DNA of 64,000 nt. Source: Actinomycetota bacterium. Its GTDB lineage: Bacteria; Actinomycetota; UBA4738; JACQTL01. Each line of letters starts with the position of its first letter. The stretch's first letter is position 1. The stretch is taken from the NCBI GenBank assembly GCA_046263085.1, contig JBHELK010000119.1, positions 18,109 to 82,108 on the forward strand, written 5' to 3'. The notes under the pieces are model-generated. The model saw only the letters and a list, made by a program, of their open reading frames with translations. It was not told the origin of the DNA and ran no database searches. This document shows positions 35,018 through 49,977 of the stretch, piece by piece. A program made the position numbers and the translations under genes.

Positions 35018-35028
35018 CCGAGATCCTC

Positions 35029-36435
35029 CTAGGTGTTCCTGCCGGTGGCGGCCCTGCGGCACAGGTACCGCTCAGCGGCGGCAACAGGGTCGTTGACTCC
35101 GAGTTTGGCCAGCCAGGATGCGCGGAACTGCGCCTTCGACGGCACGAGGTTCTTCGACGGGTCGTACTTCAGGATGTCGACGCCGCGCTCGTAGTCGACC
35201 GAGTAGATGTAGTTCTTGTCGATCCAGTACGCAGACGACGTGGAGCCCACGACGGGCTGGAAGAACCCCAGCTGCTTGATCTTCCCGGTCTTGCCGTCGA
35301 CGTCGAAGATGCGTGTGCCGTGCTCGTACCATCCGTTCGCGGTGACGATGTGGTCGTGGGTGCTGTTGTCGGAGCTGATGTCGAACCAGTGTCCGGAGCA
35401 TCCCAGGCCGTTCACCTCGGGGTTGCCGTCCTGGTAGTTGCCCTGGACGGGGCGGAAGACGTCGATCGGCTTGAACGGCTTGGCTCCGGGCTGATCGAAG
35501 TCGCGCAAGGAGTAGGTGGTGAACGGACCGCTCCCCGAGTTGCACGAAGGCGAGAAGTTCGTCTCGCCCTCGCCGAGCAGCAGCTCGCCGGGCCGGAGGT
35601 TCGGATCGGCCTTGTCCTCGTCGGTGATCCGCGGCTTGTACTCGGCCGCGTAGGGCCGGAGGTTGTTGTGCTGGTAGGCCGTCTTCTTGACGCCCATCTG
35701 CGAGGCGTCGCTGTGCGCCACCTCAACCGGTTGAGCCGGATCCGAAACGTTCAGCGCGTAGATCGGCGTCGTGTCGGTCCAGATGAGTCCGGTGGCGTCG
35801 CGGGTCACGTGATGACCGGTGCGGCCGCCGGCGGCGCTCTTCCACTCCCCCACGTACGTCGGGTTGGCCTTGTCGCGGAGGTCGTAGATCTTGCCCTCCG
35901 ACCCGTAGGCCCAGTCGCACGTCGGGCTCGCGTCGACGCACTCGATCGTGTGGTTACCCTGGTGCGCCGTCTCCTTCCCCTCGACCGTCAGGCTCACGAG
36001 CCCGCCGGGCAGGTCCTGCACGTGGATGACGATGAGATAGAGGATCCCCTCGAAGTCGCTCATCAGGACCCAATGGCCGTCGGCGGAGACCGCCACGTCC
36101 TCGTTCTCCCAGTTGTGGGTGTAGAGCGCGCCCATCAGCAGCGGAACGGCCGGGTTCGTCACGTTGTAGACGCTCAGGCCCTTCGCCGAGCTCACGTACA
36201 GGCGCTTCACGGCGCCGACCTGGACCACCCGCGCGCTGACCCCGGGGGATTCGTTGGCCAGCGTCGCCACGTAGCTGATGTTCGGCGACATGAAGCCGCC
36301 CGGGCCCGGGTCGATGTAGGTCAGGGGAGCCGGCTGGGCGCCCGCGGGACTCAGGGGACCGGCCTGCGTGGACGGCCCTGCGACCACGCCGAACAGGACA
36401 AGAGCGGGGATCAGCGCGAGTGCGCGTCGCAGCAC
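35029..36435 (-). CDS. Secreted beta-propeller protein (LVIVD-like)
   Basis: GTG start at 36435, preceded by AAGGAGGA. This yields the signal peptide (M)LRRALALIPALVLFGVVAGPSTQA. Blades include VYNVTNPAVP, IYDLRDKANP and LNVSDPAQP. The gene is 12 nt upstream of the next propeller gene and is operonic with it. Confidence 0.7.
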   Translation of the reverse strand: MLRRALALIPALVLFGVVAGPSTQAGPLSPAGAQPAPLTYIDPGPGGFMSPNISYVATLANESPGVSARVVQVGAVKRLYVSSAKGLSVYNVTNPAVPLLMGALYTHNWENEDVAVSADGHWVLMSDFEGILYLIVIHVQDLPGGLVSLTVEGKETAHQGNHTIECVDASPTCDWAYGSEGKIYDLRDKANPTYVGEWKSAAGGRTGHHVTRDATGLIWTDTTPIYALNVSDPAQPVEVAHSDASQMGVKKTAYQHNNLRPYAAEYKPRITDEDKADPNLRPGELLLGEGETNFSPSCNSGSGPFTTYSLRDFDQPGAKPFKPIDVFRPVQGNYQDGNPEVNGLGCSGHWFDISSDNSTHDHIVTANGWYEHGTRIFDVDGKTGKIKQLGFFQPVVGSTSSAYWIDKNYIYSVDYERGVDILKYDPSKNLVPSKAQFRASWLAKLGVNDPVAAAERYLCRRAATGRNT

Positions 36436-36521
36436 GGGAGTCCTCCTTGTTCGATGTCGATGAAGCTTCTGAGGGGCTGACCTATCGATTCGCAGGTGCG
36501 GGGCCGAATCCTCCCTGCCAT

Positions 36522-38609
36522 CTAGGAGGGCCCCACGGACGAGAAGCCGCAGCTCGTGCCGAAGCAAGCCCGGGCGAAGACCACGGAACCGGAGGGAACC
36601 GCGCCCACGGCGCCGGTGAAGGATCCGTCGGCGGCAACGACCGCCGGGGTGCTGTAGCTCACCTGAGCGGGATCCGTCCCGGCCGGCGCCACGCCGAGGC
36701 TGACGGTGCGGTCTGGGATGGCGTACGAGGTCCAGGTGGCGCCGTCGGCCATGTTGCCGACCGTCTGCCCGCCGACCGTCGTCCCGAAGCTCGTCACGCC
36801 CGCGCTGTATGCGGCGTAGATCGAGGGGGTGGTGACCCCGGTGGTCTGGGTCGTGGAGATCACCGCCCCGGGCTTGATGTCCGGGGCGAAGGACGCGCCG
36901 ATCGGGACGCGCACGGTGATGGTGTTCGAGGCGGTGTCGAACGAGCCGTCGAGCCACGCGAGGTGGGAACAGTTGTTGACGGCGACGAGGGTTGCGCAGT
37001 TGCCGCGGAGCCGGAACGACCGGCCGGCGTGGGTGACGGCTCCCTCGGGGTCGTCCACCGTGCCGGTGCTGCCGACGTTCGAGAGCTTCGCCTGCACCTG
37101 GTACTGCTTGCCGTTCACGAGGAACGCCCACGTGTACACGAATGTCTCCGGCGCCGTCGCCGGCACCGTCGGGTCCGGACCCGGCAGCTTGCTCACCTTC
37201 CAACGGAACTGGAGGTACGGGAGTTGGGCCTCCGGCTGGGAAACGCTCGCCTCGGTGAGGTCCGTACCGTCCTGCGCCCCAGTGGTGGGCTCGAGGGCGC
37301 CGTCGCCTGCGGGGTCGGTTGCCGCCACCACCGGCGCGGTCTCGCCGGCGAACCCGGCGGTCCCGCTCACATTCCCCGCGGCCGATGCGACGAGCGAGGT
37401 GACGCCGTTGGCGGCTGCCGGATCGCGGGGCAGGGGCCCGTTCCACTTCAGGACGTCGAACCCTCGCGTGTAGTCGACCACGTAGACCACGCGGTCCGTG
37501 ACCCAGTGCGCCGCGGACGCCCAGCTGGCGAAGGACTGGAAGAACCCCACGTTGGTGAGCTTGCCGTTCCCGTTCACGTAGAAGAACCGGGTTCCGTGGT
37601 CGTAGTACGCCTGCGCGAAGATCCCGCCGTTGTGGAAGGACGGGCTCGCCTCGAGCCAGTGCGCAGAGCACCCGGCGCCGTCCGCGGGGGTGTTCCCGTC
37701 GAGCATGTAGCCGTTCCTGGTCTGCCACCGGTCGGCCCTGCTGTACGTGCCGCCCTGCCAGCCGGTCATGTCGTAGACGTACGTCGAACCGTTCCCTGTG
37801 CCGTTGGCGCCGCAGCGCCCCGTCAGGTTGGTTTCCGTTCCCACGAGCATGAACCGGTCGGTGGCCTGGTTCGCCCAGCTCGTAGAGTGCATGTATTCGC
37901 TGGTCTTCTGCCCTGCGCCCATGCACGCGAGCTTCTTGGGATGGGCCGGGTCGGTGGTGTCGAGGATGGCGCCCGGGCAGTTCGCGCCGCTCCCGGAGGA
38001 CACGACGACGATGCCGGGGGCGTCCTCGCGGACGTCGTGGCCCGCGGACACACCGGCGAGGGTTGCCCAGTTCCCGACGAGGGCCGGCTTCGTGGGGTCG
38101 TGGAGATCGATGATGTTGCCGCTCGAGCCGTACAGGTAGGTGCAGTCCGCCACGCAGGTCATGGTGTGCTGCGCCAGGCCCGAGACGGAGGCGACCTCGA
38201 CGGGCTTCGTCTTGTCGGTGACGTCGTAGATGTGCAGGAAGTTCTGTCCCGGGCCCACGATCGGGACGTTCCCGGTCTGCGAGTACACGAGGATCTTGCC
38301 GTTCGTGGCGACGTCCTCGTTCTCGTACTGGCTCGGGACCGGCGTGATGCTCACGAGCTGTGGGTCCTCGGGGTTCGAGGCGTCGTAGATGGAGATGCTC
38401 CGCCAGCTGGTGATGTAGAAGTAATGCCCCACGAGCTTGGCTCCGGTGGCGCCGTACACCTCGAATGGCACGAACCGAACGTGCTCGACCCACGACGACG
38501 CAACGCCCTGCGCCGGCGCGTCCGGCCCCGCCCGCCCGATGCCGGGTGACATCACGGCGACGGTGAGCGAAAGCGACACGACCGTCGCGAGGATCCTGAG
38601 CTTCTTCAT
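36522..38609 (-). CDS. Secreted LVIVD beta-propeller protein with a C-terminal ~300 aa conserved module of unknown function ('ACFGxxCG' module)
   Basis: Signal peptide MKKLRILATVVSLSLTVAV. The N-terminal propeller carries blades ISIYDASNPEDP, LHIYDVTDKTKP, IIDLHDPTKP and ILDTTDPAHP. The C-terminal module reads QYQVQAKLSNV...RLRGNCA...LAWLDGSFD...VRVPIGASFAPDIKPGAV...ARACFGTSCG. Confidence 0.75.
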   Translation of the reverse strand: MKKLRILATVVSLSLTVAVMSPGIGRAGPDAPAQGVASSWVEHVRFVPFEVYGATGAKLVGHYFYITSWRSISIYDASNPEDPQLVSITPVPSQYENEDVATNGKILVYSQTGNVPIVGPGQNFLHIYDVTDKTKPVEVASVSGLAQHTMTCVADCTYLYGSSGNIIDLHDPTKPALVGNWATLAGVSAGHDVREDAPGIVVVSSGSGANCPGAILDTTDPAHPKKLACMGAGQKTSEYMHSTSWANQATDRFMLVGTETNLTGRCGANGTGNGSTYVYDMTGWQGGTYSRADRWQTRNGYMLDGNTPADGAGCSAHWLEASPSFHNGGIFAQAYYDHGTRFFYVNGNGKLTNVGFFQSFASWASAAHWVTDRVVYVVDYTRGFDVLKWNGPLPRDPAAANGVTSLVASAAGNVSGTAGFAGETAPVVAATDPAGDGALEPTTGAQDGTDLTEASVSQPEAQLPYLQFRWKVSKLPGPDPTVPATAPETFVYTWAFLVNGKQYQVQAKLSNVGSTGTVDDPEGAVTHAGRSFRLRGNCATLVAVNNCSHLAWLDGSFDTASNTITVRVPIGASFAPDIKPGAVISTTQTTGVTTPSIYAAYSAGVTSFGTTVGGQTVGNMADGATWTSYAIPDRTVSLGVAPAGTDPAQVSYSTPAVVAADGSFTGAVGAVPSGSVVFARACFGTSCGFSSVGPS

Positions 38610-38628
38610 CTCATGCCTTCCTGTTCGA

Positions 38629-40683
38629 TCAGGGCGCGACCGAGCGGTATCCGCAGCTCGCGCCGAAGCAGGCCTGGGCGAACACCTGGGAACCTGCCGG
38701 GACGCTCGGCACCTGGCCGGTGAAGGTCCCGTCGTCGTTCAGCGTGACCGGGATGGTGTAGTCGACCGTCGATGGATCCGTCCCGGCGGGAGCGACGCCC
38801 AGCATCACGGTGGCCTTCGGGATCGTGTACTGATCCCAGTCGATGTCGTCCGCGACGGTGGTGTTCGTCACCAGCACCGAGTTCGCGGCGTACAGCGTCG
38901 GCAGGCTGGCCGACGGCGTGAGGACCGCGCCGGGCTTGATGTCGGGGGCGTACGAGGCGCCGACCGGCACGCGGACCATGATGGTCTTGTTCGGGACGTC
39001 GATCGAGCCGTCGAGCCACGCGAGCGTCGGGCAGTTGTTGAGCACCCCGACCACCGCGCAGTTCCCGCGGAGCCGGAAGGAACGGCCGAGCCTCGTCACG
39101 GGGCTCGTGGGGTCGTCGGCGAGGACGGTGCTGGCGATGTTCTCGACCTTGGCCTGCACGGCGTAGTCCTTGTTGTTCGCCTTGAAGTACCAGTTGTAGG
39201 AGGTGGTCTCGGGGATCGCCCCGGACGTGGTGTCCGGCAGCGGGAGGTTCGTCACCTTGAACCGAAGCTCCACGTACGGCAGTTGCGCCTGCGGCTGTGA
39301 GAGGCTCGCCTCCACGAGGTCGGCGCCGGCCGCGTCGGAGACCTGCGCAACCCCTGGGCCGTCACCCACGGCGTCGGTGAAGGTGGTCGGGCTCGTCTCG
39401 CCGGCGAAGGTGGCGGTACCCGTGACCGTGGCCCCGCTGCCCGAGGCCGTCGCCACGAGCTGGGTCACGGCGTTGTCGGCCGCCGCGTCGTGCGGCAGGG
39501 GCCCGTTGTACTTCAGGACGTCGATGCCCCTCGTGTAGTCCACCGCGTACACGACACGGTCGGTGATCCAGTGCACTGCCGACGTCGACCCGCCGAACGG
39601 GGTGAAGAACCCGACGGGTGTGAGCTTGCCGTTGCCGTTGACGTAGAAGAACCGGGTCCCGTGCTCGTAGTAGCCCTGGGCGAAGATGCCGCCGTTGTGG
39701 AAGGAGGGCGCCGCCTCCAGCCAGTGAGCGGAGCATCCGAGCACGTTCACCGGGGGGTTCCCGTCGAACAGGTAGCCGTTCTTGCCCTGCATGCGGTCCG
39801 TGCGGTGGTACGTGCCGCTCTCCCACCCGGTGGTGTCGTAGACGTAGGTGGCGCCGTTGCCGGTGGCGTTCGCGCCGCACCGGGTCTTCTCGTTCGTCTC
39901 CGAGCCGACCAGCATGAATCGGTCGGTGGCGTTGTTCGGCCACGTTTCCGAGTGCATGTACTCGGACGTCCTCTGGGTGCTGGCGATGCACGAGAGCTTC
40001 ACCGGGTTCACCGGGTCCGTGACGTCGAGGACGGCGCCCGGACAGTTCTGTCCGCTGCCCGAGGAGACGACCACGATCCCCGGCGCGTCCTCACGGACGT
40101 CGTGGCCCCCGGAGACGCCCGCCTTCTGGGCCCAGTTGCCGACGAGCGCCGGCTTCGTGGGGTCCCGCAGGTCGATGATGTTGCCGCTCGAGCCGTAGAG
40201 GTAGGTGCAGTCGGCGACGCACGTCATCGTGTGCTGAGCGATGCCGGCGACGTTTGCGATCATGACAGGGTTCGCCTTGTCGGTGACGTCGTAGATCCGC
40301 AGGTGGTTCGACCCGCCGCCGGCGAGGGATGCGCTGGTCTCGCTGAAGACCAGGACCTTGCCGTTCGTGGCGACATCCTCGTTCTCGAACCGGTGCGGGT
40401 CGCTCGGGTCCTCCTTGGCGAAGGGCACGATGCTCACGAGCTGAGGGTCCTCGGGGGTCGACGTGTCGTAGATCGACAATGACCTCCACCCCGTGACGTA
40501 GTAGTAGTGGCCGACGAGGCGGGCGCCGGTGGCGCCGTACACCTCGAACGGAACGAACTTCACGTGCTCGACCAGGGTCGAGGTGACGCCCTGGGCCGGG
40601 GCATCCGGGCCGGCCGCCACGACCTGCGAGCCGGTGGGTACCGCCACGAGAGCGAGGGTGAGGATCAGCGCCAGTCGTCGCAT
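38629..40683 (-). CDS. Secreted LVIVD beta-propeller protein with the C-terminal 'ACFGxxCG' module (tandem paralog of 36522-38609)
   Basis: Signal peptide MRRLALILTLALVAVPTG. The protein is collinear with, and highly similar to, the downstream paralog throughout. C-terminus ...AQACFGASCGYRSVAP. Confidence 0.75.
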   Translation of the reverse strand: MRRLALILTLALVAVPTGSQVVAAGPDAPAQGVTSTLVEHVKFVPFEVYGATGARLVGHYYYVTGWRSLSIYDTSTPEDPQLVSIVPFAKEDPSDPHRFENEDVATNGKVLVFSETSASLAGGGSNHLRIYDVTDKANPVMIANVAGIAQHTMTCVADCTYLYGSSGNIIDLRDPTKPALVGNWAQKAGVSGGHDVREDAPGIVVVSSGSGQNCPGAVLDVTDPVNPVKLSCIASTQRTSEYMHSETWPNNATDRFMLVGSETNEKTRCGANATGNGATYVYDTTGWESGTYHRTDRMQGKNGYLFDGNPPVNVLGCSAHWLEAAPSFHNGGIFAQGYYEHGTRFFYVNGNGKLTPVGFFTPFGGSTSAVHWITDRVVYAVDYTRGIDVLKYNGPLPHDAAADNAVTQLVATASGSGATVTGTATFAGETSPTTFTDAVGDGPGVAQVSDAAGADLVEASLSQPQAQLPYVELRFKVTNLPLPDTTSGAIPETTSYNWYFKANNKDYAVQAKVENIASTVLADDPTSPVTRLGRSFRLRGNCAVVGVLNNCPTLAWLDGSIDVPNKTIMVRVPVGASYAPDIKPGAVLTPSASLPTLYAANSVLVTNTTVADDIDWDQYTIPKATVMLGVAPAGTDPSTVDYTIPVTLNDDGTFTGQVPSVPAGSQVFAQACFGASCGYRSVAP

Positions 40684-40710
40684 CTACGTTTCTCCTGTCG
40701 TCCTGGTCGT

Positions 40711-42279
40711 CTATGCGACGACGTTCTGGGTCACGGTCACGGGCTGGTAGGCGTCGTCGCCGGCCCAGGTCGCGGTGACCTGGTGAGGGCCGGCGGGAAG
40801 AGCAAGCGGAGCTGAGAACGTGCCGTCCGCCGCGGTGGTCGCGGTGACCGACGTGCTCCCGGAGCTCACCGTCAGGGTGATCCCGGCGAGGGGCTTGTTG
40901 ACCCACCCGAGGTAGGTCCACACGGCGTAGCGGTCGAGCTTGCCGGTGATGGCCCCGCCGGTGGCGGCCGCGTTCACCTGGAGGCGGGCCACCTTCTTCG
41001 GCATCGCTCCGGTGTAGGTGAAGACGTCCATCCCGCGGGTGATGTCCTGCGTGAAGACGTACCGGTCGAATTTCGGATCGTCGAAGCGGGTCCACTTCGA
41101 GGACCACGTGTTGGCGCCCTCCGGCAGGAAGTTCCCAACCGTGTTGCCCCACGTGGTGGGCCCGCCGAACGTCGTGCCCTTGAACTCCTGGTACTCACCG
41201 CCGGAGGCCTTCGTCGGGAACTGCATGTCGGCGACGAACGTGCCCGCCGAGTAATGGGCCACCGACATCAGGAACCGCTCCGCCTGGAACGTGAGCACGT
41301 GGATCGTGCAGTTGCCCCACTGCCGCTGCGCGGTGGGGTCGGTGAGGCTGTAGAACGGCGCGAACCAGTGCCCGATCTCCTTCGGGTTGCTCAGGCTCGC
41401 CCCCGGGATGTACTTGCCGCTGATGTCGTAGATGTGGGCGCCGCCGCCCGGGCAGGTTTCATTGGTGAGGCCGCCGCCGCGCTCGTCGGTGAGGACCACG
41501 AACGATGAGTCCGGCGAGGGGTCGGCCTGGTGCCCGATCGAGACGTTCCCGTCGTGGACGTTCTTGATGATGGTGGGCTTCGCCGGGTCCGAGAGGTCGA
41601 CGATCTGCAGGTTGGTGCTCGACTGAGGGCACGCCGAGTAGCCGATCGTCGGGTTGTTCGGATCGACCGTGAGGTCGTGGCCACAGATCTGCGGCGCCTG
41701 CCCCAGGACCTTCGGGTTCCTCGCATCCGAGTAGTCGACGATGTAGGTGGGGAGCAGCGTGTAGAAGTACTGGTCGTTGATGATCGTCACGTTGTGGGCG
41801 CCGTCCACGCCCTCGAAGTGCGACAGCAGCTGCGGATTGGCCACATCGGTGATGTCCACGATGTCCACACCGATACCGTTCGTCCCGCCACCGTGGTCGA
41901 CGGTCGAACCGAGGTTGTCGGTGGCGAGCAGCACGATGTTGCGCCGCGGGTTCACCTGGATGTCGCCCTCCCAGTTGAATCCTGGATCGACGAAAGCGCC
42001 GGCGATCAGCGGCAGGTCCGGATTGGTGATGTCGATGATGTTGAACCCGTGGCCCATGTCGCCGACCACGGCGTAGCGCTTCAGCGCCCCGTCGGACAGC
42101 TTGCGCTCGAAGAACTCGATGTCGCTGCCGACATCGGCCGGGACGTTCCACTTCCAGTCCATGTTGTGCTTGCCCAGGGCACCGGCGGCGGGAATGACGG
42201 CCCCGGCCGGCTGGCCGGCGAACGTCGCAGTCAGGATGGCCGCTGCGACGAATGCGAGTGCTGTCTTCCTCAAGGTCAT
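40711..42279 (-). CDS. Secreted LVIVD beta-propeller protein with C-terminal Ig-like/big domain
   Basis: Signal peptide MTLRKTALAFVAAAILTATFAG. Blades include FNIIDITNPDLP, VDIVDITDVANP, LQIVDLSDPAKP and AHIYDISGK. The C-terminus has a Thr-rich beta domain. Confidence 0.75.
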   Translation of the reverse strand: MTLRKTALAFVAAAILTATFAGQPAGAVIPAAGALGKHNMDWKWNVPADVGSDIEFFERKLSDGALKRYAVVGDMGHGFNIIDITNPDLPLIAGAFVDPGFNWEGDIQVNPRRNIVLLATDNLGSTVDHGGGTNGIGVDIVDITDVANPQLLSHFEGVDGAHNVTIINDQYFYTLLPTYIVDYSDARNPKVLGQAPQICGHDLTVDPNNPTIGYSACPQSSTNLQIVDLSDPAKPTIIKNVHDGNVSIGHQADPSPDSSFVVLTDERGGGLTNETCPGGGAHIYDISGKYIPGASLSNPKEIGHWFAPFYSLTDPTAQRQWGNCTIHVLTFQAERFLMSVAHYSAGTFVADMQFPTKASGGEYQEFKGTTFGGPTTWGNTVGNFLPEGANTWSSKWTRFDDPKFDRYVFTQDITRGMDVFTYTGAMPKKVARLQVNAAATGGAITGKLDRYAVWTYLGWVNKPLAGITLTVSSGSTSVTATTAADGTFSAPLALPAGPHQVTATWAGDDAYQPVTVTQNVVA

Positions 42280-42288
42280 TCTCCGGTC

Positions 42289-43989
42289 TTACGTCTGGAC
42301 GGATTGGGTGACGCTGGCCTGCTGGAACGTGTCGTCGCCCGTCCAGGTCACGGTGACCTGGTGCGACCCGGCGGAGAGTCCGAGGTTCGCCGAGAACGTG
42401 CCGTCGTCGGCGGTCGTGGCCATCACGGTGACGCCGCCGCCCGTGACCTCCACGCTCCGTCCGGCGAGGGACTTGTTGACCCATCCCTGGTACGTGAGGA
42501 CGGCGTAACGATCGAGCTTGCCGGTGGCCACGCCTCCGGGCGCGGCAGGATCGACAGCGAGGCGCGCAAGTTTCTTCGGCAGCGGCCCCGTGTACTTCAG
42601 GATGTCGAACCCCCGTACGAGCCCGTTCGTGAAGACGTAGCGACCCGTGTCCGGATCGGCGGCGGAAGCGTCGAACGGCCACCACTGCGACGCGTTCACG
42701 AAGTCGCCCTCGGCGAGGAAGTTGCCCGTGGTGTTGCCCCAGGTGGTGGGCCCGAGCCCCCGGACGGCGCTGCACGGAGGGGTGACCTCCGGGCGGCAGG
42801 TCCAATCCCGCTTGGGGTTTCTATTCCATTCGGTATAGAGACCACCGCTCGACTTCGTGGCGGCAGTCGGATCGCCCACCCAGCTTCCGAGCGTGTAAAC
42901 ACCGGCGGTGAAGATCATCCGCTCGGCCTGGAACTGCCAGCTGTGGGTCGTGCAGCTGGCCCAGTTCGGATGGTTCGAATCCGGGTCGGGATCAGTGGAC
43001 TCGATCGTGTTGAAAGGCGCGAACCACTTCCCCATCTTGATCGGGTTCGTGAGACTCGCCCCGGGCATGTACTTCCCGCTGATGTCCCAGAAGTGGATTC
43101 CTCCACCCGGGCACTGGAAGTACGTGTAGCCGGTCGCGGGCCCGATCCGATAGTCGGTGACGCCGATGAACGAGGAATCCGCGGATGGATAGACCTCGTG
43201 GGCGAGGCTGATCTCCGGATCTTGCTTCTGGACGATGACGACCGGATGGGCCGGATCCGTGGTGTCGAGGATCCCCCACTTGGCGGGCTGCGCGCAGAAG
43301 CCGACGTAGGTCCGGCCCGGGATGTTCGGATCGGGATAGAACTCGTGGCCGCAGAGGTTGTTCAAGCCCGCGTCTGCGAGCTTCGGCTTCGCCGGGTCGG
43401 CCACGTCGATGATGTGCGTGGGAAGGGTGGTGTACAGGTATCGGTCGTCGATCCACCGGATGGTGTGCGGCCCGTTCGAGTCGCCCTGCCCCAGAGCCGC
43501 CACCTGGCCGCGGTACACCGGATTCGTGACGTCGGAGATGTCGACGATGTCGACGCCGTTCGAGCCCCCGTGGCCGAGGTTCGGGTCGGTCGGAGGCCAC
43601 GCGGATCTGCCCGGTGCCTCGATGGAGTACGCCACGAGCTTGCGGGTGGGATTCACCGAGACCCACGAGTGGTAGTTGAAGCCCACCGTCACGTAGCGGC
43701 CCACGGTCGAAGGCTCAGCCGGGTCGGTGATGTCGATGATGTCGAACCCGAAGTTGTGAGCGACCACGGCGTACCGGGAAAGCGAGCCGTTCGACTCCTG
43801 CCGCTCGAAGAAGTCGAGCGCGTTGCCGCCCGAGCTGACCTGGTTGTTGACCCAGGTCACGTTCTTCGAGCTCACGATGCCCTCGGCGGGAAGACCGGCC
43901 GGCTGTGCGCCGGCGGGGATCGCCGCCGTGCCGCCGAGCATGGCGGCGGCGAGCGCCGCGACCCCCAGCTTGCGCACCGAGCCCGTCAT
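42289..43989 (-). CDS. Secreted LVIVD beta-propeller protein with C-terminal Ig-like domain (tandem paralog of 40711-42279)
   Basis: Start trimmed to MTGSVRKLGVAALAAAMLGGTAAIPAGA (signal peptide). The protein is collinear with its paralog (FDIIDITDPAEP, VDIVDISDVTNP, IHFWDISGK). The ATG overlaps the upstream stop in an ATGA arrangement. Confidence 0.75.
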   Translation of the reverse strand: MTGSVRKLGVAALAAAMLGGTAAIPAGAQPAGLPAEGIVSSKNVTWVNNQVSSGGNALDFFERQESNGSLSRYAVVAHNFGFDIIDITDPAEPSTVGRYVTVGFNYHSWVSVNPTRKLVAYSIEAPGRSAWPPTDPNLGHGGSNGVDIVDISDVTNPVYRGQVAALGQGDSNGPHTIRWIDDRYLYTTLPTHIIDVADPAKPKLADAGLNNLCGHEFYPDPNIPGRTYVGFCAQPAKWGILDTTDPAHPVVIVQKQDPEISLAHEVYPSADSSFIGVTDYRIGPATGYTYFQCPGGGIHFWDISGKYMPGASLTNPIKMGKWFAPFNTIESTDPDPDSNHPNWASCTTHSWQFQAERMIFTAGVYTLGSWVGDPTAATKSSGGLYTEWNRNPKRDWTCRPEVTPPCSAVRGLGPTTWGNTTGNFLAEGDFVNASQWWPFDASAADPDTGRYVFTNGLVRGFDILKYTGPLPKKLARLAVDPAAPGGVATGKLDRYAVLTYQGWVNKSLAGRSVEVTGGGVTVMATTADDGTFSANLGLSAGSHQVTVTWTGDDTFQQASVTQSVQT

Positions 43990-45764
43990 CGGTCCGCCGG
44001 AGCCACGATCACGGATCCCTGCATAGACGTGTCGGTCGCCGACGACGTCGACGTATAGACCCACGTGCCGGACTCGTCCTCGAAATCAGCGGAGTGCGAC
44101 TTGCGCGGCGGAATGTCGCCGTTGGAGTTGATCTCGTCCCCCGGGAGGATGACCGAGCCCTCGGTCGTGACGACCACGGCCCGCTCTGCCGTTACGTTGT
44201 GGGGGACGGTGTCCTCGTTCACCCACAGGACCTTGACGTCGCGCGGGATCGTGATGACCTGCGGCACGAACTGACCGTCGATGATCTCCACGGTGTACGT
44301 GTCCGGCGTGTCCTGGACGAACGTGACCCGATAGACCGAGCCGTGGAAATCGGCGACGTACATGGCGCCGTCCGGTCCGAACACCACGTCGATGGGGGCG
44401 CCGCCCGTCATGAACGCCCGGGTCCAGGCCACGGTGCCGTCCTCGTTGAAGTGGACCTGTTGGATCTTGTGGCCGCTCGGCTCGGGAGGAACGGCGTTCG
44501 TGTTCCAGATGCTGCCCCACTCGGCCACGAAGAGGTCGCCGTCGTAGCGCTCCGGGAAGTCGTCGCCGCGCTCGAACGCGAGGCCGGACGTCCCGCTGTG
44601 CGCGCTGAGGAACTTGACGGGGCGCAGGATGTGGTCGATCGGAGTCCGAGGCGGAGCCGCTGGGCAGTGGCCGAACTTGGCGATCGTCGCCTCGTTCAGG
44701 TTGTCGTCCGGGTCGTAGATCTCGGGGTGCTCATGGCCACCCGACGGCTGCGGCCAGGCGTTGACGTGCTGGCCGTAGAGGCAGGACGGGAACCCCGCGT
44801 CGTCGATGACCGGGCCATAGATCGGGTTGCCCTGTGGGTCGGTACCGACGACGTGCTGGTCACAGATGTTGGTTCGGTACAGGGGCTCGTTGGAGGCGGG
44901 GTTGTCCGAGCCGTTCATCGGCGTGTAGAGCGAGCAGGGATCGCCGGGCTGGGTGTCGACGTCGTAGATGTTGCGGAAGCCCCGGGCGGCGAGGACCTCG
45001 TCGTCGTCCAGAACGCCGGGGTCGTCGTAGCCGTTGGCGTCGACGGTGACGTCCTTCAGCAGGTCGACGTCGCGCCACGCGGGATTGACGCGCAGGATCG
45101 ATCCCGTCCAGGGCTGGACCTCCTGGGTCGGGCATGCGAGCGGCGAGGCCGGCTCGGGCCCGCATTCGGTTCCGTCGTCGGTGGCACTGCCCGTCGCGAC
45201 GTACAGCATGCCGTCAGGGCCGAACACCATGCCGTTCGTCTGATGGCGGCCGTTCGGGATGTCCTTGAGGATCGTCGCTCGCGTCTCATACGTGCCGTCG
45301 CCATCCGCGTCGCGCAGCGCGAGGATGCTCCCCTTGTACGCGGTCGTGTCGTTGTCGGAGACGTACATCGTGCCGTCGGGCCCGAAGACCATCCCGATGA
45401 CCTGGCCGAAGCCGTCGGCGACCGGGATCGGAGCCCCGCCCGCCACCACGCCGTCGACCACGTCGAAGGAGTAGACGGCGCCGTTCGAGAGCGCCTGGGG
45501 CCCGTCGCCGGCTGCAACGCCCTGCACCGACGTGACGAAGAGCTTCCCGCCCGGTCCGAACGTGAGGCTGGTGGCGAGATCGCCCGGGGGAAGCTGGGCG
45601 AAGGTGGAGACGCCGAACCCGACCGGCGGAACGAGGGCCCCGGCCAGCTCGACGGGATCGTGGGCCTGGGCCGGTGCCTGGACGAGACCGGGACCGGCGA
45701 GGGTCACGAGGATCACGATCGCTCGGGCGAGTCCGCGAAACCGCGTGCGTCCGTTCCCCTTCAC
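43986..45764 (-). CDS. Secreted soluble glucose/sorbosone dehydrogenase-like (SGDH/PQQ-dependent-like) beta-propeller protein with C-terminal cupredoxin-like domain
   Basis: GTG start at 45764, preceded by GGGAGGAG. Signal peptide (M)KGNGRTRFRGLARAIVILVTLAGPGLVQAPAQA. Repeated GMVFGPDGTMYVSDND / GMVFGPDGMLYVATGS / VVFGPDGAMYVADFHG blades are typical of the GSDH family. The C-terminal ~110 aa have a plastocyanin-like pattern (VPHNVTA...), but the Cys ligand appears to be replaced. Confidence 0.7.
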   Translation of the reverse strand: MKGNGRTRFRGLARAIVILVTLAGPGLVQAPAQAHDPVELAGALVPPVGFGVSTFAQLPPGDLATSLTFGPGGKLFVTSVQGVAAGDGPQALSNGAVYSFDVVDGVVAGGAPIPVADGFGQVIGMVFGPDGTMYVSDNDTTAYKGSILALRDADGDGTYETRATILKDIPNGRHQTNGMVFGPDGMLYVATGSATDDGTECGPEPASPLACPTQEVQPWTGSILRVNPAWRDVDLLKDVTVDANGYDDPGVLDDDEVLAARGFRNIYDVDTQPGDPCSLYTPMNGSDNPASNEPLYRTNICDQHVVGTDPQGNPIYGPVIDDAGFPSCLYGQHVNAWPQPSGGHEHPEIYDPDDNLNEATIAKFGHCPAAPPRTPIDHILRPVKFLSAHSGTSGLAFERGDDFPERYDGDLFVAEWGSIWNTNAVPPEPSGHKIQQVHFNEDGTVAWTRAFMTGGAPIDVVFGPDGAMYVADFHGSVYRVTFVQDTPDTYTVEIIDGQFVPQVITIPRDVKVLWVNEDTVPHNVTAERAVVVTTEGSVILPGDEINSNGDIPPRKSHSADFEDESGTWVYTSTSSATDTSMQGSVIVAPADR

Positions 45765-45829
45765 GACGGGCTCCTCCCAAAGACACGACCGTCCCGGGGA
45801 CCTTTCGAGGGGAACGGGCCGGCTACCTT

Positions 45830-45843
45830 TGTGCAAGTGCACA
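45830..45843. promoter_or_regulatory. Palindromic putative operator, site 3: TGTGCAAGTGCACA (extended form TTGTGCA-AG-TGCACAA)
   Basis: Perfect 16-bp inverted repeat 66 nt upstream of the GTG at 45764. This GTG heads the apparent seven-gene minus-strand operon running 45764 to 33881. Confidence 0.6.
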
Positions 45844-45856
45844 AGCGAGGGCCGGC

Positions 45857-47491
45857 TCAGACCTGGATGGTGGTGACCCTCGTGGCGCAGTTCGCACCGA
45901 AGCAGGCCCTCGCCCACACGTCCCAGGACCCGGGACCGGGCGCGGACAGGACCCCGGCGAAGCGCCCGGTGGAGTCCGCGGTCGTGGTGACGGCGAACAT
46001 CACCTGGCCGAGCGGCGTCCCGGCCGGCGCGATCCCGATCGAGACCTGCCGATCCGGGATCCGGTAGGTGAACGACGTGTCGCTGCCTCCCCACGCCGCC
46101 TGGTCGGCCGTCACCGTTTCGGCACCGGGCGCGATCTGGTACCCGGTCTGGATCGTGGAGAGGTCGCCGGCGGGGCTCTGGTTCCTCGTCAGCACGGCCC
46201 CGGGCACGATCTCGGGCGTGGCGCCGAGCGGCACCTTCACACGGATCGTGTTCGTGGCGACGTCGAAGGAGCCGGTGAGCCAGGCCATGTGCGTACAGGT
46301 GCCGGCGGGGGGGACCGTCGTGTCGATGCACTCCCTGAGCTCGAAGGCATGGCCCGTATTGCCGACTCTGCCCTGAGGATCGGACCGGTCCGTTGCCGAT
46401 AGGTCCGACAGTTTCGCCTGCACCTGGAATTGTTTGCCGCCCGTCCGGAACGGGATCGTGTAGCGAACAGCTTCAGGGAAGCTGCCCGACTCGGGCAATC
46501 CCGTGACGTGCCACTCGAAGAAGACCGAGGGGATGGCGGGATCCGGCTGATAGGCGCTCGCGCCGACCAGGTCGACGCCCGTGTCCTGGGCAGTCTGAGC
46601 GGTGCCGGGCGCGTCACCCGCCGGATCCTGCGCGAGGGATACGGGCGACTCGCCCGCGAACACCGCGCCCCCGGACACGGAGACCTGCGACCCGGATGCG
46701 GTTGCGTTCAGCGAGGGTACCGATGTCGAGGACGACCCAGGCGCAAGGACGCGGACCACGCCGGCATGGCCTCCTCCCCCGGCAGTGCCGTGAACCTTGC
46801 AGTAGTAGAGGTAGACGCCCGGTTTCAGGAAGGTGTGGGAGTACGTCTCTCCCGGCTGCCAGCAGACCTGGGCCGCCGTGGGGCACTGCGGGCTGGAGTC
46901 CCAGGACCCGTCGCTGGCGGTGACGGAGTGCGCCACCTGGCCCGTGTTCCGCCACTCGACGGTGGTTCCCGCCGGTACGGTGAGGTCCTTCGGAGCGAAG
47001 AAGTTGTCTCCGGCGTTCACCTCGATGTCGCCGCCGGACTCCGGCACGGGGGCCGGCCGCGGCAGGATCTGCAGCGAGCCCGTCATGTACGGGTGGATCG
47101 TGCAGATGAACGTGTAGAGCCCTGGGGGCACCTGCTCGACGGGCACCGGGGCGCTCTGACTCACGCCGACGAGGTCGCTGATGAACCAGGGTTGCCCGTC
47201 CGGCCGATGTTCAAGTGACTCGAGGTTGTGAAGGTCACCGTCGAGATTGGTGTGAACCAGGCTGTCCCCCTCGACGATCTGCAGCGGCGGCAAGGGGGCG
47301 ATGTGCGTGTCCCCGGGTACGTACGTGTAGTTGTCGGTGAGGATCTGGTGCGTGGTGGTGTCGCTGCCGGTGGGACTCGAGACGACCGCCGCCGATCCCG
47401 GACCGCCCGCCCAGGCGCGGGCCGACGTCACCGCTCCGGGAACGCCGAGGGCGATCGCGAAGGCAACGACGAGCCGCAACGTCCTCACCAC
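45857..47491 (-). CDS. Secreted protein with two cupredoxin (type-1 blue copper) domains and the C-terminal 'ACFGxxCG' module
   Basis: GTG start at 47491 or 47488, preceded by GGGAGGTG. Signal peptide VVRTLRLVVAFAIALGVPGAVTSARAWA. First cupredoxin: H...YTFICTIHPYM (Cys-His-Met ligand spacing). Second: AHSVT...YLYYCKVHG. The C-terminus (QFQVQAKLSDLS...THMAWLTGSFD...RVKVPLGATPEIVPGAVL...ARACFGANCATRV) is homologous to the module in 36522 and 38629. Confidence 0.7.
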   Translation of the reverse strand: MVRTLRLVVAFAIALGVPGAVTSARAWAGGPGSAAVVSSPTGSDTTTHQILTDNYTYVPGDTHIAPLPPLQIVEGDSLVHTNLDGDLHNLESLEHRPDGQPWFISDLVGVSQSAPVPVEQVPPGLYTFICTIHPYMTGSLQILPRPAPVPESGGDIEVNAGDNFFAPKDLTVPAGTTVEWRNTGQVAHSVTASDGSWDSSPQCPTAAQVCWQPGETYSHTFLKPGVYLYYCKVHGTAGGGGHAGVVRVLAPGSSSTSVPSLNATASGSQVSVSGGAVFAGESPVSLAQDPAGDAPGTAQTAQDTGVDLVGASAYQPDPAIPSVFFEWHVTGLPESGSFPEAVRYTIPFRTGGKQFQVQAKLSDLSATDRSDPQGRVGNTGHAFELRECIDTTVPPAGTCTHMAWLTGSFDVATNTIRVKVPLGATPEIVPGAVLTRNQSPAGDLSTIQTGYQIAPGAETVTADQAAWGGSDTSFTYRIPDRQVSIGIAPAGTPLGQVMFAVTTTADSTGRFAGVLSAPGPGSWDVWARACFGANCATRVTTIQV

Positions 47492-49818
47492 GGGACACCT
47501 CCCTGGATCCTCGGATGCAGGACCACCTTGTTCGGGTCCCACGGGCTCGATCCCCGGCCCTGTTCGAGGATCGTGAAGTGCTCGCCGGTCACCCGTGTCG
47601 CGGTCCCGGTGACCTCGAAGTACGTGTAGGACGCGTTGTTGCCGTCCGTGGTCTCGAGGATGTTGTTCTTCGGGTCCGCGGTGAGCCGCACCACGTAGCG
47701 CCCGTCCCCATTCGCCGCGAAGTTGACGTAGTTGCCGACCCGCTGCCACCGGTAGACGTCCCCCCAGCCGCCCGAGAGCCCCACCATGCTCTGGGACCCG
47801 GACAGGCCGCACCCCGCGACCTTCGAGCTGTCGGTGCGCTGATCGAACGAGTACCAGTTTCCGAAGGACTCGTTCGCAGGGAAGTAGCCGATCTTGCGGC
47901 CCACCCCCGAGGAAGCCAGCGTGCCCGCAGTCGCGTCGGTGACCTTGAAGAGCTCCAGCTTGACGATGTCCTTGACGTGGAGGTGGGCGTGGGTCTCGTG
48001 CCACACCATCTCCCCGGCAGGGCGCGTCTCGAAGGCCGGGGTCTCTCCCGGTCGCTCGACGCACTGGAACGCCGGTCCCGGACCGGCGGTGGTGGCGTTG
48101 CCGTTCCAGTACGCGTCGAACTGACCGTGTCCGACGTTCGATAACCCGAAGGAGAACCGAAGGCAACGCGTGTGGGGGCTGTCCGGGTCCGGGCCATCGG
48201 AGATCAGCTCCTGGGTGGTGTTGTCGCCGAACGTCTCGTCCGGCGAACAGGACGCGGGGTGAACGCCGGCGACGTCGGCCGGGGGGTTCGCCGAGTCCGG
48301 CGCGAAGAAGGGGCCGTTCAGCGGATTCACCGGCGCTGCGAACCCGAGGTCGTACGGCGGGGTCGGCTGGAGGTCCGGGAGCAGCCGGCCGCTCGCGTCC
48401 GGGGCGAAGACGGGGATCTGCGCCTCGAGCTTCGCGCGCATCTGGAACCGGGTGGGGGCGTGCACCGAATACGGGTGCACCAGGATGTCGTAGACGCCCA
48501 CCGGCGGGTTCGCCGTGAAATCCTCCCGGTTGAAGGCGGTGGGATTCGTCGCATCCGTGTGCGCGGGCCCGCTCGGGGGCGTGACCCGGAACGCGAACCC
48601 GTCGCTCCGGGCGGGGACGTCGATGGCGATCCGCAGCCTCGCCGCTCCGGGGGTGTCCACCCTGAGCTTGTAGTCGAAGCATGGGGTGTTGTCGCAGCTC
48701 TGGATGTTGGCGTTGTTGGGCAGGTTGTTGGCGTAGGGGAGCTGGTCGCCGACCTTGCCGCCCGCCCAGAAGACGTAGCTGTCGCTCGCCCGGTCCGTGA
48801 GGCGGAGCGTGGCGACGAGGCCGTCGTCGACCCTCGTGACGCCGCCGAGGCTCCGGATGCCGCAGTTGGCGCCGAAGCAGGCCTTGGCGAAGACGTCGAA
48901 GCTCCCCGGCGCGAACCCGGCCGTGGAGATGGATCCGGAGAACGAGCCGTCGCCGGCGAGCGTCGCCGGGGTCGAGAAGTCGACGCCCGAGGGATCGGTC
49001 CCGGTCGGGCCGATGCCCAGCGTCACCTGCTTGGTCGGGATGGTGAAGGCATAGCTCGCGGACGACGGGTCGCCGAACGAGGCGGTGTCGTTCGCCGCGC
49101 CGACGAAGCCGAGCTGGACGCCGGCCATGATGAGGTTGAGGTCGTCGCTCGTGGCGTTGTTGCGCTCCAGCACCGCGCCGGGAACGAGTTGGGGCGCTGC
49201 GGGCGAGCCCATCGGGACGGAGACCGAGACCGTGGAATAGACGGTGTCGACGGAGCCGGTGAGCCACGCGAGGTGCTGACAGCTGGCGCTACCGGTTCCC
49301 ATGAAGTTCGGCATGCAGTTGCCGAGGAGCTCGTAGGCGCCGTCGATGTGACCGGACCCGCCCTGCGGATCCGTGGCCAGGTTCGAGAACTTGGCCTGAA
49401 CCTGGTACACGGCCTCGCCGGCCTTGAACGGGAAGGTCAGCCGAGTGGCCTCCGGGATCTGCCCGCTTGGCGGGATGCCCGCGAGCTGCCACTGCACGAG
49501 CAGCTGCGGCGTGTCCGGGTCGGGCACGGAGATGTCCGCGCCGATGAGGTCGATGCCGTGCTCGCCGGTGCCGTTGAAGTCACCGACGTTCGGCGTGACC
49601 TGGGCGTCGTTCCCGGGGTCGTCCGCCACCTCGACCGGCCGCTGGCCGCCGAAGACCGCCGACCCCGAGATGGCCATTTCGCCGGAGGTGGGCGTCCCGG
49701 ATACCGCCGTCACCGCGCTCGGTACCGTCGTCTTGTCGCCCGCATCGGCGGACACCGCCATCGCAGGCACGAGTCCCAGCAGCGTGAACGGCACGACGAG
49801 CAGGACGAGCTTCCGCAT
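47485..49818 (-). CDS. Secreted protein: N-terminal 'ACFGxxCG' module fused to a C-terminal domain with a lysyl-oxidase-like His-rich copper motif
   Basis: ATG at 49818 with a GGAGGT RBS. Signal peptide MRKLVLLVVPFTLLGLVPAMAVSADA. The N-terminal half (VYQVQAKFSNLATDP...CQHLAWLTGSVDT...VSVPMGSPAAPQLVPGAVL...FAKACFGANCGI) matches the shared module. The C-terminal half contains MVWHETHAHLHVKD, which resembles the WEWHSCHQHYH copper site of lysyl oxidase. That assignment is tentative. The stop overlaps the downstream start (GTGGTGA). Confidence 0.6.
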   Translation of the reverse strand: MRKLVLLVVPFTLLGLVPAMAVSADAGDKTTVPSAVTAVSGTPTSGEMAISGSAVFGGQRPVEVADDPGNDAQVTPNVGDFNGTGEHGIDLIGADISVPDPDTPQLLVQWQLAGIPPSGQIPEATRLTFPFKAGEAVYQVQAKFSNLATDPQGGSGHIDGAYELLGNCMPNFMGTGSASCQHLAWLTGSVDTVYSTVSVSVPMGSPAAPQLVPGAVLERNNATSDDLNLIMAGVQLGFVGAANDTASFGDPSSASYAFTIPTKQVTLGIGPTGTDPSGVDFSTPATLAGDGSFSGSISTAGFAPGSFDVFAKACFGANCGIRSLGGVTRVDDGLVATLRLTDRASDSYVFWAGGKVGDQLPYANNLPNNANIQSCDNTPCFDYKLRVDTPGAARLRIAIDVPARSDGFAFRVTPPSGPAHTDATNPTAFNREDFTANPPVGVYDILVHPYSVHAPTRFQMRAKLEAQIPVFAPDASGRLLPDLQPTPPYDLGFAAPVNPLNGPFFAPDSANPPADVAGVHPASCSPDETFGDNTTQELISDGPDPDSPHTRCLRFSFGLSNVGHGQFDAYWNGNATTAGPGPAFQCVERPGETPAFETRPAGEMVWHETHAHLHVKDIVKLELFKVTDATAGTLASSGVGRKIGYFPANESFGNWYSFDQRTDSSKVAGCGLSGSQSMVGLSGGWGDVYRWQRVGNYVNFAANGDGRYVVRLTADPKNNILETTDGNNASYTYFEVTGTATRVTGEHFTILEQGRGSSPWDPNKVVLHPRIQGGVPW

Positions 49819-49887: not shown

Positions 49888-49977
49888 CGGAAAGAAGGAG
49901 TGCTGCCGGGGCAATCGACGGATGTCCGTGCGCCGCCAGGAGGATTCGGCCCGTCCCTCGCGAAGAAAGTGGAAGAC

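Follow-up and report, generated by a model that had tools for sequence, protein, structure and literature searches.

Four secreted actinobacterial proteins share a two-part extracellular module predicted to combine DOMON-like and FN3-like folds

Four genes coding for secreted proteins of an uncultured soil actinobacterium, termed A to D, were identified on the minus strand of the 64,000-nt window (the whole stretch of DNA that was analyzed), and the lengths of their open reading frames (695, 684, 544, and 777 aa) matched the NCBI gene calls. Gene A (36522..38609) encodes a signal peptide, an LVIVD-type beta-propeller (Pfam LVIVD, 24.9 bits), and a C-terminal module within 695 aa and was named "LVIVD repeat-containing protein" by NCBI (MFN2545635.1). 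The same arrangement of signal peptide, LVIVD-type propeller, and module was found in the 684 aa product of gene B (38629..40683) from the open reading frame, BLASTP, Pfam, and NCBI data, and A and B were full-length tandem paralogues with 63.6% identity (BLASTP). Gene C (45857..47491; 544 aa) codes for a signal peptide, two cupredoxin domains (Pfam Copper-bind, 4.9e-12, residues 157-239), and the module, under the NCBI name "plastocyanin/azurin family copper-binding protein." Gene D (47485..49818; 777 aa) encodes a signal peptide followed by the module, a beta-rich spacer, and a lysyl oxidase (LOX)-like domain according to the open reading frame, Pfam, BLASTP, and NCBI data. Read directly from the sequences, proteins A, C, and D have no N-terminal twin-arginine motif of Tat signals, and B begins MRRLAL. 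A PQQ-GSDH-like gene (43986-45764) adjoins gene C, and in further LVIVD paralogues of the island the position of the module is taken by an Ig-like domain unrelated to it (Big_3_5/CarboxypepD_reg).

Pairwise BLASTP of the whole proteins revealed a segment of about 285 aa common to all four, with 34-41% identity between differently built proteins (E 1e-37 to 1e-61). The alignments included A 398-687 with C 253-535 (41.5% identity, E 2.6e-51), A 397-693 with D 33-325 (36.5%, E 1.6e-45), B with C (38.8%, E 3e-45), B with D (34.3%, E 1.6e-37), and C 248-538 with D 22-322 (41.0%, E 1.6e-61). HMM-defined limits of the module were residues 405-693 in A (nt 36531-37397), 408-683 in B (nt 38635-39462), 260-543 in C (nt 45863-46714), and 38-325 in D (nt 48844-49707), all on the minus strand, and tblastn with the four segments as queries found no fifth copy in the window. 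These alignments covered exactly the regions for which a sequence-only reading of this DNA had claimed a shared domain, and its landmarks QVQAK, GNC, C-x-H-[LM]-A-W-L, PGAV, and a terminal ACFGxxC were all recovered. The segment was somewhat shorter than the ~300 aa then proposed, and the final G of the proposed "ACFGxxCG" ending was not universal, with protein C ending "ACFGANCA." Instead of the single conserved Cys pair suggested earlier, two pairs were conserved (C388/C399 and C530/C535 in protein C), such that each of the two parts of the module contained one short-range pair. An alignment of 10 sequences contained 19 invariant columns that included the four Cys. Given a genomic GC content of about 70% and the abundance of A, G, T, S, and V in the segments, the likeness could in principle have been a chance or compositional effect of Ala/Gly/Thr-rich stretches in high-GC proteins. 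This explanation is refuted by the E values (1e-37 to 1e-61) obtained despite composition-based statistics, the invariant columns, hundreds of database homologues with identical boundaries, and the confident structure predictions for the module.

An exhaustive HMMER search with the module profile identified 603 representatives of clusters formed at 50% identity, and all members with a named source were from uncultured Actinomycetota metagenome-assembled genomes (MAGs); a first word-indexed protein search had returned mostly orthologues of protein C and missed A, B, and D. About 60% of the members were free-standing secreted proteins of ~300 aa, and the remainder were fused to propellers (including the PQQ propeller of P0068), to single and double cupredoxins, or to BNR, PD40, PA, S8 protease, dockerin, or LOX-like domains. 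The fused module was mostly at the extreme C-terminus with nothing behind it, and the two-domain arrangement was obligate across the 600 clusters. The default form of the family is the free-standing protein. Several paralogues were present per genome, including the four in the window, three in a row in L003, a tandem in L004, and at least three loci in MAG SMAG_U2913. A GTDB genome scan restricted to a narrow C-terminal peptide pattern detected five loci, all in Actinomycetota soil MAGs, a result with little bearing on taxonomic breadth. The neighborhoods of five free-standing members had no recurrent neighbor gene, and a lysyl oxidase gene was located near one free-standing member.

The module was without annotation in the sequence libraries searched, and the NCBI names of the four proteins came from their other domains only. 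It had no match in Pfam-A and NCBIfam for the four window proteins, nor in Pfam-A for 10 free-standing members (hmmscan, E<=1) and 78 aligned members (E<=10), and none of the DOMON, CBM9, EB_dh, CDH-cyt, and Glucodextran_C profiles matched in these three Pfam-A searches. The Pfam fn3 and Big models remained below threshold on the module (best E 0.0045 among the 78 members). PDB sequence searches with 4-sequence and 78-sequence profiles gave chance matches alone (antibody, lectin; E>=0.04), Foldseek against the PDB returned nothing significant, and a word-indexed protein search with 78 sequences at E<=1 produced neither marginal matches nor DOMON-annotated proteins. Literature searches found no description of the module or of the LVIVD/cupredoxin/LOX island.

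The view that the segment could not be assigned to a known family held for sequence comparison, while predicted structures pointed to two familiar folds. They suggested that the module is composed of a DOMON/CBM9-type ligand-binding beta-sandwich (~205 residues) and an FN3/Ig-like domain (~75 residues). A 10-11-strand beta-sandwich of the Ig type characterizes the DOMON-like superfamily (Iyer, Anantharaman & Aravind 2007, summarized in PMC4846438), and the N-terminal part was predicted as a 10-11-strand Ig-like beta-sandwich resembling solved members, with the C-terminal part predicted as a seven-strand beta-sandwich that superposed on FN3 domains. Subdomain borders were set by hmmalign to the module profile with a cut at profile position 212. 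The predicted DOMON-like subdomain comprised residues 405-625 of A (36735..37397; Cys538/Cys547), 408-615 of B (38839..39462; Cys542/Cys551), 260-466 of C (46094..46714; Cys388/Cys399), which was the sequence modelled alone, and 38-247 of D (49078..49707; Cys168/Cys180). The predicted FN3/Ig-like subdomain comprised residues 626-693 of A (36531..36734; Cys682/Cys687 in ACFGTSCG), 616-683 of B (38635..38838; Cys672/Cys677), 467-543 of C (45863..46093; Cys530/Cys535 in ACFGANCA), and 248-325 of D (48844..49077; Cys314/Cys319 in ACFGANCG), with all eight on the minus strand.

For the first part, the closest solved structure was the non-heme domain C of the glucodextranase from Arthrobacter (PDB 1ULV/1UG9), which belongs to the DOMON_like superfamily and is named Glucodextran_C in Pfam, yet no member of the module family matched the Glucodextran_C model (PF09985) even at E<=10. 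Six of the 11 DOMON-type structural neighbors were heme-b cytochrome domains, namely NxrC (7B04_C), EBDH-gamma (2IVF_C), three cellobiose dehydrogenase (CDH) cytochromes (1d7c, 4qi6, and 4qi3), and the pyranose dehydrogenase (PDH) cytochrome b domain (6JT6). Remotely related were CBM9 of Thermotoga maritima Xyn10A (PDB 1I82), where a Trp pair clamps the sugar, the CBM74-containing Sas6 (7UWU), and BACUNI_03838 (4JPQ), in contrast to which the partners of the module are not glycoside hydrolases. Another related system, the dopamine beta-hydroxylase DOMON domain (PDB 4ZEL), is eukaryotic, is without an FN3 partner, and had no sequence similarity to the module. Relatives of the second part included fibronectin, a Lap adhesin repeat (6XI3), and a C. 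thermocellum Fn3-like domain (3MPC), from which the module family differs by its characteristic terminal C-x4-C hairpin clamp with "ACFGxxC." The last Cys pair (C-x4-C) probably forms a disulfide that clamps the final beta-hairpin, and each part would be pinned by one short-range disulfide. The "ACFGxxC" motif was also considered as a C-terminal sorting signal and rejected because no hydrophobic helix follows and its residues lie in the last FN3 strand; the sequences stop 8-10 residues beyond the last Cys, and these residues form that strand with pLDDT ~95. LPXTG/sortase and MYXO-CTERM-type (Cys plus transmembrane helix) signals, in which a hydrophobic helix and then a basic tail come after the motif, were likewise absent, with no such helix at the C-terminus.

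Subfamily-specific conservation mainly involved polar residues (Arg, Lys, His, Gln, and Asp). K102 was conserved in 59% and H146 in 52% of the family; both were present in 64 sequences, neither in 50, and one only in 18. A catalytic or ligand role for the Lys of "QVQAK" throughout the family was rejected because of the 59% conservation of this residue, and protein B retains the K of QAK with the subfamily His replaced by Thr. No Met column reached 50% in any subgroup.

We favor, with a probability of about 0.45, a reading in which the module is a non-catalytic cassette for ligand binding or anchoring and provides a common address for its partner enzymes. The interpretation proposed earlier, a mobile domain with a targeting, substrate-binding, or cofactor-handling role, is supported in part. 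One sheet of the DOMON-like domain would bind a ligand on its exposed face, most probably a glycan or a polymer of the cell envelope and possibly with the aid of a structural metal on conserved Asp/Glu, and the FN3-like domain would serve as a rigid spacer. Fusion to LVIVD propellers, cupredoxins, and the LOX-like copper oxidase may then confer a shared address on the cell surface or a polymeric substrate. The predominance of free-standing secreted members, the several paralogues per genome, the dockerin domains on some members, and the presence of the module on both translationally coupled proteins D and C could alternatively indicate a self-associating surface-layer or scaffold element, in which module-module or module-envelope contacts let free-standing copies form a lattice or matrix where fused enzymes dock. 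In Pfam, Glucodextran_C is characterized as a binding module resembling SLH that occurs in S-layer proteins as well, which would fit this alternative, but the polar subfamily-specific conservation suits small-ligand or glycan recognition rather than a hydrophobic interface, and we consider it unlikely. An inert stalk, in which the two beta-sandwich domains bind nothing specific and just hold catalytic domains away from the cell, is very improbable. FN3/Ig-like domains are common spacers and the unrelated Ig-like domain of the other LVIVD paralogues occupies the same position, but an extreme C-terminal module with nothing behind it spaces nothing, free-standing copies would be left without a role, and the strongly conserved polar set together with the obligate two domains over 600 clusters points to a specific function.

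A redox role would have the DOMON-like domain carry heme b, another redox cofactor, or a metal via the co-varying Lys/His, so as to connect the LOX-like copper oxidase with cupredoxins and PQQ-type dehydrogenases in extracellular electron transfer. This would resemble the way in which cellobiose and pyranose dehydrogenases supply copper enzymes through their cytochrome DOMON. Known DOMON cytochromes have Met/His or Met/Lys axial ligands. Consistent with such a role are the heme-b majority among the structural neighbors, the strong co-occurrence of K102 and H146 plus two Arg as candidate propionate holders, the recurrent redox partners (single and double cupredoxins, the PQQ propeller, and the LOX-like domain), and the redox neighbors (the PQQ-GSDH-like gene and the lysyl oxidase gene by a free-standing member). 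Lys and His are also accepted heme axial ligands in the DOMON-like superfamily (PMC4846438). Unlike the heme-b DOMON cytochromes, however, the module has no conserved Met in any subgroup, no family-wide axial ligand pair, no match to the EB_dh or CDH-cyt models, and many non-redox partners (BNR, PD40, S8 protease, PA, and dockerin). The K/H pair is missing from about 40% of the family, protein B has Thr at the His position, and the co-occurrence of the pair may just mark a clade; among solved structures, the glucodextranase domain, which is non-heme, matches best. With no twin-arginine in A, C, and D, most of the four window proteins would be exported unfolded, so that heme would need to be inserted outside the cell. 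We consider this role quite unlikely for the family. Slightly more doubtful is the specific proposal that the Lys/His-bearing half, including A, C, and D, is a new cofactor-binding DOMON with copper or Lys/His-ligated heme b, forming an extracellular electron-transfer network with cupredoxins, LOX-like oxidase, and PQQ-type dehydrogenases on uncultured soil Actinomycetota, in which the free-standing ~300-aa proteins would shuttle electrons either by diffusion or while bound to the surface.

A family of about 600 clusters that is unnamed in any searched library and whose source-named members all come from uncultured Actinomycetota MAGs merits a new Pfam/InterPro entry in the DOMON-like clan, and roughly 40% of each of four half-annotated secreted proteins now has a structural hypothesis. 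If the ligand is a cell-envelope polymer, the module would become a candidate device for surface display without sortase in an actinobacterial lineage about which little is known; with a redox cofactor as ligand, the range of DOMON cytochromes would instead grow to include extracellular electron transfer in Gram-positive bacteria.

Genes D (module-LOX-like) and C (double-cupredoxin-module) overlap by 7 nt, and this type of pair was kept in three unrelated contexts. The translationally coupled pair is a candidate extracellular copper system with one address tag on both components. The LOX-like domain of D scored 17.5 bits against Pfam Lysyl_oxidase (PF01186), below the cut-off of 20.4, and its lysyl oxidase-homologous region (residues ~367-757; 47548..48720, minus strand) aligned by BLASTP with the Pfam-positive lysyl oxidase protein of L009 (E 1e-29). 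The copper motif WHETHAHLH in this region fits W-H-x-x-H-x-H-x-H and was conserved in orthologues.

The four minus-strand genes at 36522-38609 (A), 38629-40683 (B), 45857-47491 (C), and 47485-49818 (D) were confirmed as open reading frames of 695, 684, 544, and 777 amino acids, lengths identical to the NCBI gene calls on the 84-kb source contig of the "Actinomycetota bacterium" MAG. Whole-protein pairwise BLASTP aligned the same regions for which a sequence-only reading had claimed a shared module, matching A 398-687 with C 253-535 (41.5% identity, E 2.6e-51), A 397-693 with D 33-325 (36.5%, E 1.6e-45), C 248-538 with D 22-322 (41.0%, E 1.6e-61), B with C (38.8%, E 3e-45), and B with D (34.3%, E 1.6e-37). 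With E values of 1.6e-37 or lower, chance similarity among the four was refuted and the common module lies far beyond it. A and B are in addition tandem paralogues over their full length (63.6%). The HMM-defined limits of the module are nt 36531-37397 in A, 38635-39462 in B, 45863-46714 in C, and 48844-49707 in D (all minus strand), and tblastn identified no fifth copy in the window. In the alignment of A-D, 64 columns are invariant, among them four Cys that fall into two local pairs, and all four N-termini resemble signal peptides. The motifs first picked out as landmarks were all recovered in A-D, apart from the terminal "...CG", since C ends in ACFGANCA.

Pfam-A and NCBIfam matches in A-D were confined to the partner domains: A and B matched LVIVD, along with choice-of-anchor-B below threshold, C matched Copper-bind/Cupredoxin_1, and D matched Lysyl_oxidase below threshold (Pfam 17.5 bits versus a cut-off of 20.4), the last explaining the NCBI designation of D as "hypothetical". 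Ten free-standing relatives had no library match at E<=1, and 78 members scanned singly at E<=10 matched no DOMON-clan family, giving a few sub-threshold Ig-like matches that all fell on the C-terminal subdomain. PDB sequence and profile searches with the module returned chance matches only, and members in public sources are labeled "hypothetical protein" or named after their partner domain. The suggestion that the module belongs to no named family was thus upheld by Pfam-A, NCBIfam, and PDB sequence searches, and at the sequence level it is a new family of a few hundred clusters. A word-indexed search recovered just 15 relatives, mostly C orthologues, and an exhaustive HMMER scan with a 10-sequence profile over 1.84 billion cluster representatives retrieved 603 at E<=1e-3, 393 at E<=1e-10, and 89 at E<=1e-30.

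The profile was re-mapped onto the best 150 of the 603 representatives plus the window proteins, where the module was always intact as a single unit with divergence limited to the middle of distant members. Among 132 intact copies, 79 were free-standing (signal peptide plus module, about 290-345 aa), 26 followed a small N-terminal domain, 17 followed a large one, four were N-terminal, and six lay within giant proteins (1250-2150 aa), which in some cases carry two copies. The module ended <=4 residues from the protein C-terminus in 133/151 cases, and a signal-peptide-like N-terminus was present in 129/144 proteins of >=280 aa. Partners identified by Pfam were propellers (LVIVD, BNR/sialidase-like, SBBP, PQQ, and PD40), cupredoxins (one or two), the LOX-like domain, DUF11, dockerin, S8 protease, and the PA domain. 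The closest module pairs often came from unlike architectures, consistent with repeated fusing and splitting of the module, and the label "mobile" proposed earlier fits. Uncultured Actinomycetota MAGs were the origin of all source-named members and of 5/5 GTDB matches, a scan with one narrow peptide pattern such that taxonomic breadth may exceed these five. No recurrent partner gene was found in the inspected neighborhoods of free-standing members; in one locus (L009 1450-7099) an 840-aa BNR_2 protein and a Pfam-positive lysyl oxidase of 414 aa are encoded close to such a member, repeating the propeller/LOX company of the window.

An AlphaFold2 model of the C module built from a 10-sequence alignment was all-beta (pLDDT 82.5, pTM 0.82). 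The eleven top structural neighbors (scores in brackets) were glucodextranase 1ulv_A (10.0; 155 residues aligned), NxrC 7b04_C (8.1), ethylbenzene dehydrogenase gamma 2ivf_C (7.7), dopamine beta-hydroxylase (DBH) 4zel_B (7.3), the cellobiose dehydrogenase cytochrome domains 1d7c_A (7.1) and 4qi3_B (6.3), Sas6 7uwu_A (7.0), the pyranose dehydrogenase cytochrome b domain 6jt6_A (6.7), a putative carbohydrate-binding protein 4jpq_B (6.4), cellobiose dehydrogenase 4qi6_A (6.4), and CBM9 1i82_A (6.3). All eleven are known structural members of the DOMON-like superfamily, and generic antibody and Ig folds ranked below them. Heme- or sugar-binding families, at least nine of them and distant from one another in sequence, make up this superfamily (PMC4846438), which includes Glucodextran_C, likened to CBM9 (PMC10074034). 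Foldseek against the PDB gave nothing significant (best E 0.05), with glucodextranase as the sole non-antibody top match (prob 0.94, TM 0.41). The model therefore suggests a DOMON link that is remote, at the level of fold and without support from any sequence model. A single undescribed domain was not borne out, as the predicted structure joins two known fold types, a DOMON-like sandwich and an FN3-like domain, into one fixed cassette; the remainder of the sequence-only interpretation, a mobile, extracellular, and unannotated module probably involved in targeting or binding, stands. The module is accordingly predicted to be not new in kind, both folds being common extracellular building blocks, and its distinctive traits are the obligate two-domain cassette, two characteristic putative disulfides, the lack of canonical heme ligands, the confinement of named members to uncultured Actinomycetota, and the mostly free-standing copies.

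Across 132 modules, conservation was highest (protein C numbering) for the Cys pairs C388/C399 and C530/C535 (95-99%), doubling the one pair remarked on initially, and for Y344 (94%), followed by the acidic set D289, D293, D307, E340, D410, and D463 (63-83%), which is reminiscent of the Asp-built metal site behind the DBH DOMON pocket (PMC4846438). The number of Cys per module was always even (four in 109/132, otherwise two, six, or eight), and the last pair was C-x4-C in 103/130. Both pairs are probably disulfides because in the secondary-structure map the first flanks one sandwich beta-hairpin and the second holds the last FN3 hairpin together, in agreement with an extracellular location. 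No His or Met column was conserved family-wide in the 132 modules. The Lys of QVQAK (K102) occurs in 59% of members and the His of C-x-H-[LM]-A-W-L (H146) in 52%, with both in 64, neither in 50, and one in 18 (Fisher p about 1e-18), a co-occurrence that shared ancestry alone could explain. A, C, and D belong to the subfamily having both residues, and B has Thr at the His position. Specific to this subfamily are W69, R85, Q100, D114-P-x-G-H118, R129, D155, and Q199, with no conserved Met. According to strand periodicity, R85, Q100, K102, and R129 point outward from the core on adjacent strands, and this face looks like a candidate ligand-binding surface.

The best-supported reading, to which a probability of roughly 0.45 is assigned, is that the module acts as a non-catalytic binding or anchoring cassette. 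By analogy with glucodextranase domain C and CBM9, its nearest relatives, the DOMON-like sandwich would hold a structural metal and recognize a ligand, for which a glycan or an envelope polymer is the most plausible candidate; the FN3-like domain would serve as a rigid spacer, and enzymes fused to the module would share one address. This is suggested by the promiscuous and functionally unrelated partners, the strong bias to the extreme C-terminus, the signal peptides and putative disulfides, the conserved polar and aromatic residues of the surface, and the presence of the module on both members of the coupled D-C pair. Against it stand the remote fold link and the 60% of free-standing members, atypical of CBMs or anchors. 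A self-associating surface-layer or scaffold element would account for this free-standing majority and for the multiple paralogues, but is considered improbable.

A heme or redox-cofactor DOMON is somewhat less likely still: in its favor are the cupredoxin/PQQ/LOX company, the Lys/His pair, and the six b-type cytochrome domains among the eleven DOMON-type neighbors, yet a conserved Met is absent, about 40% of members lack the Lys/His pair and B lacks the His, non-redox partners are numerous, and the N-termini of A, C, and D have no twin-arginine (Tat) motif. Only if this cofactor-binding role were true would the module be surprising in kind. The notion of an inert stalk is given very little credence. 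The finding helps with family curation and with annotation of a poorly known actinobacterial lineage.

The D (module-LOX-like) and C (double-cupredoxin-module) genes overlap by 7 nt (45857-49818, minus strand), and the same order and overlap are kept in two metagenomic contigs (L003, 7770-10007/10001-11593; L014, 7743-10007/10001-11587) amid otherwise unrelated flanking genes, suggesting a copper unit of two genes that are translationally coupled. Directly upstream of the pair in L003 lies a third module gene, giving a run of single cupredoxin plus module, module plus LOX-like, and double cupredoxin plus module. A FUR-family regulator and a NicO-type metal transporter (L003 4996-7656) were also observed just upstream of these three genes. 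The "LOX-like" label for the C-terminal half of D (residues ~367-777; 47485-48720, minus strand) is justified by sequence comparison despite the sub-threshold Pfam score, as it matches the Pfam-positive lysyl oxidase of L009 (E 1e-29) and contains WHETHAHLH, a copper motif of the LOX type that the L003 orthologue shares. It also contains a Lys in GRKIGY and a Tyr in GWGDVY, which may sit at the positions that form the LTQ cofactor in human LOX. The cupredoxins of C (residues ~30-240; 46775-47400, minus strand) comprise a first domain with the classic ligand loop C-x2-H-x2-M (CTIHPYM) and a second with C-K-V-H-x7-H-A-G lacking Met, a pattern kept in three C orthologues (P0004, P0009, and P0013) that may represent a type-1 copper site whose axial ligation is unusual. 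The LOX-like/double-cupredoxin pair sharing one tag is a testable side-finding.

The module genes lie in an island of about 14 signal-peptide-bearing proteins (28234-51561) of slightly lower GC (0.665-0.685 versus 0.70-0.72), flanked by icd/mdh on one side and gltA/folD/purH on the other. It encodes eight LVIVD-type propeller paralogues, namely A, B, 28234-29730 (-), 29909-31597 (+), 33881-35062 (-), 35029-36468 (-), 40711-42279 (-), and 42289-43989 (-), along with an M28 peptidase with a PKD domain (31598-32839, +) and an S8 subtilase (49900-51561, +). Where A and B have the module, 40711-42279 and 42289-43989 carry a C-terminal Big_3_5/CarboxypepD_reg-like Ig domain unrelated to it, and the island propellers thus exchange C-terminal appendages. 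The island also encodes a PQQ-GSDH/DUF7133-like propeller (43986-45764, -) whose cupredoxin-like tail (Pfam Cupredoxin_1, E 4.7e-4) is probably not blue-copper because Cys is absent at the expected ligand position. Apparently unrelated to the island, a 1032-aa GGDEF-GAF-HD(HD_5) signaling protein is encoded at 15106-18204 (-).
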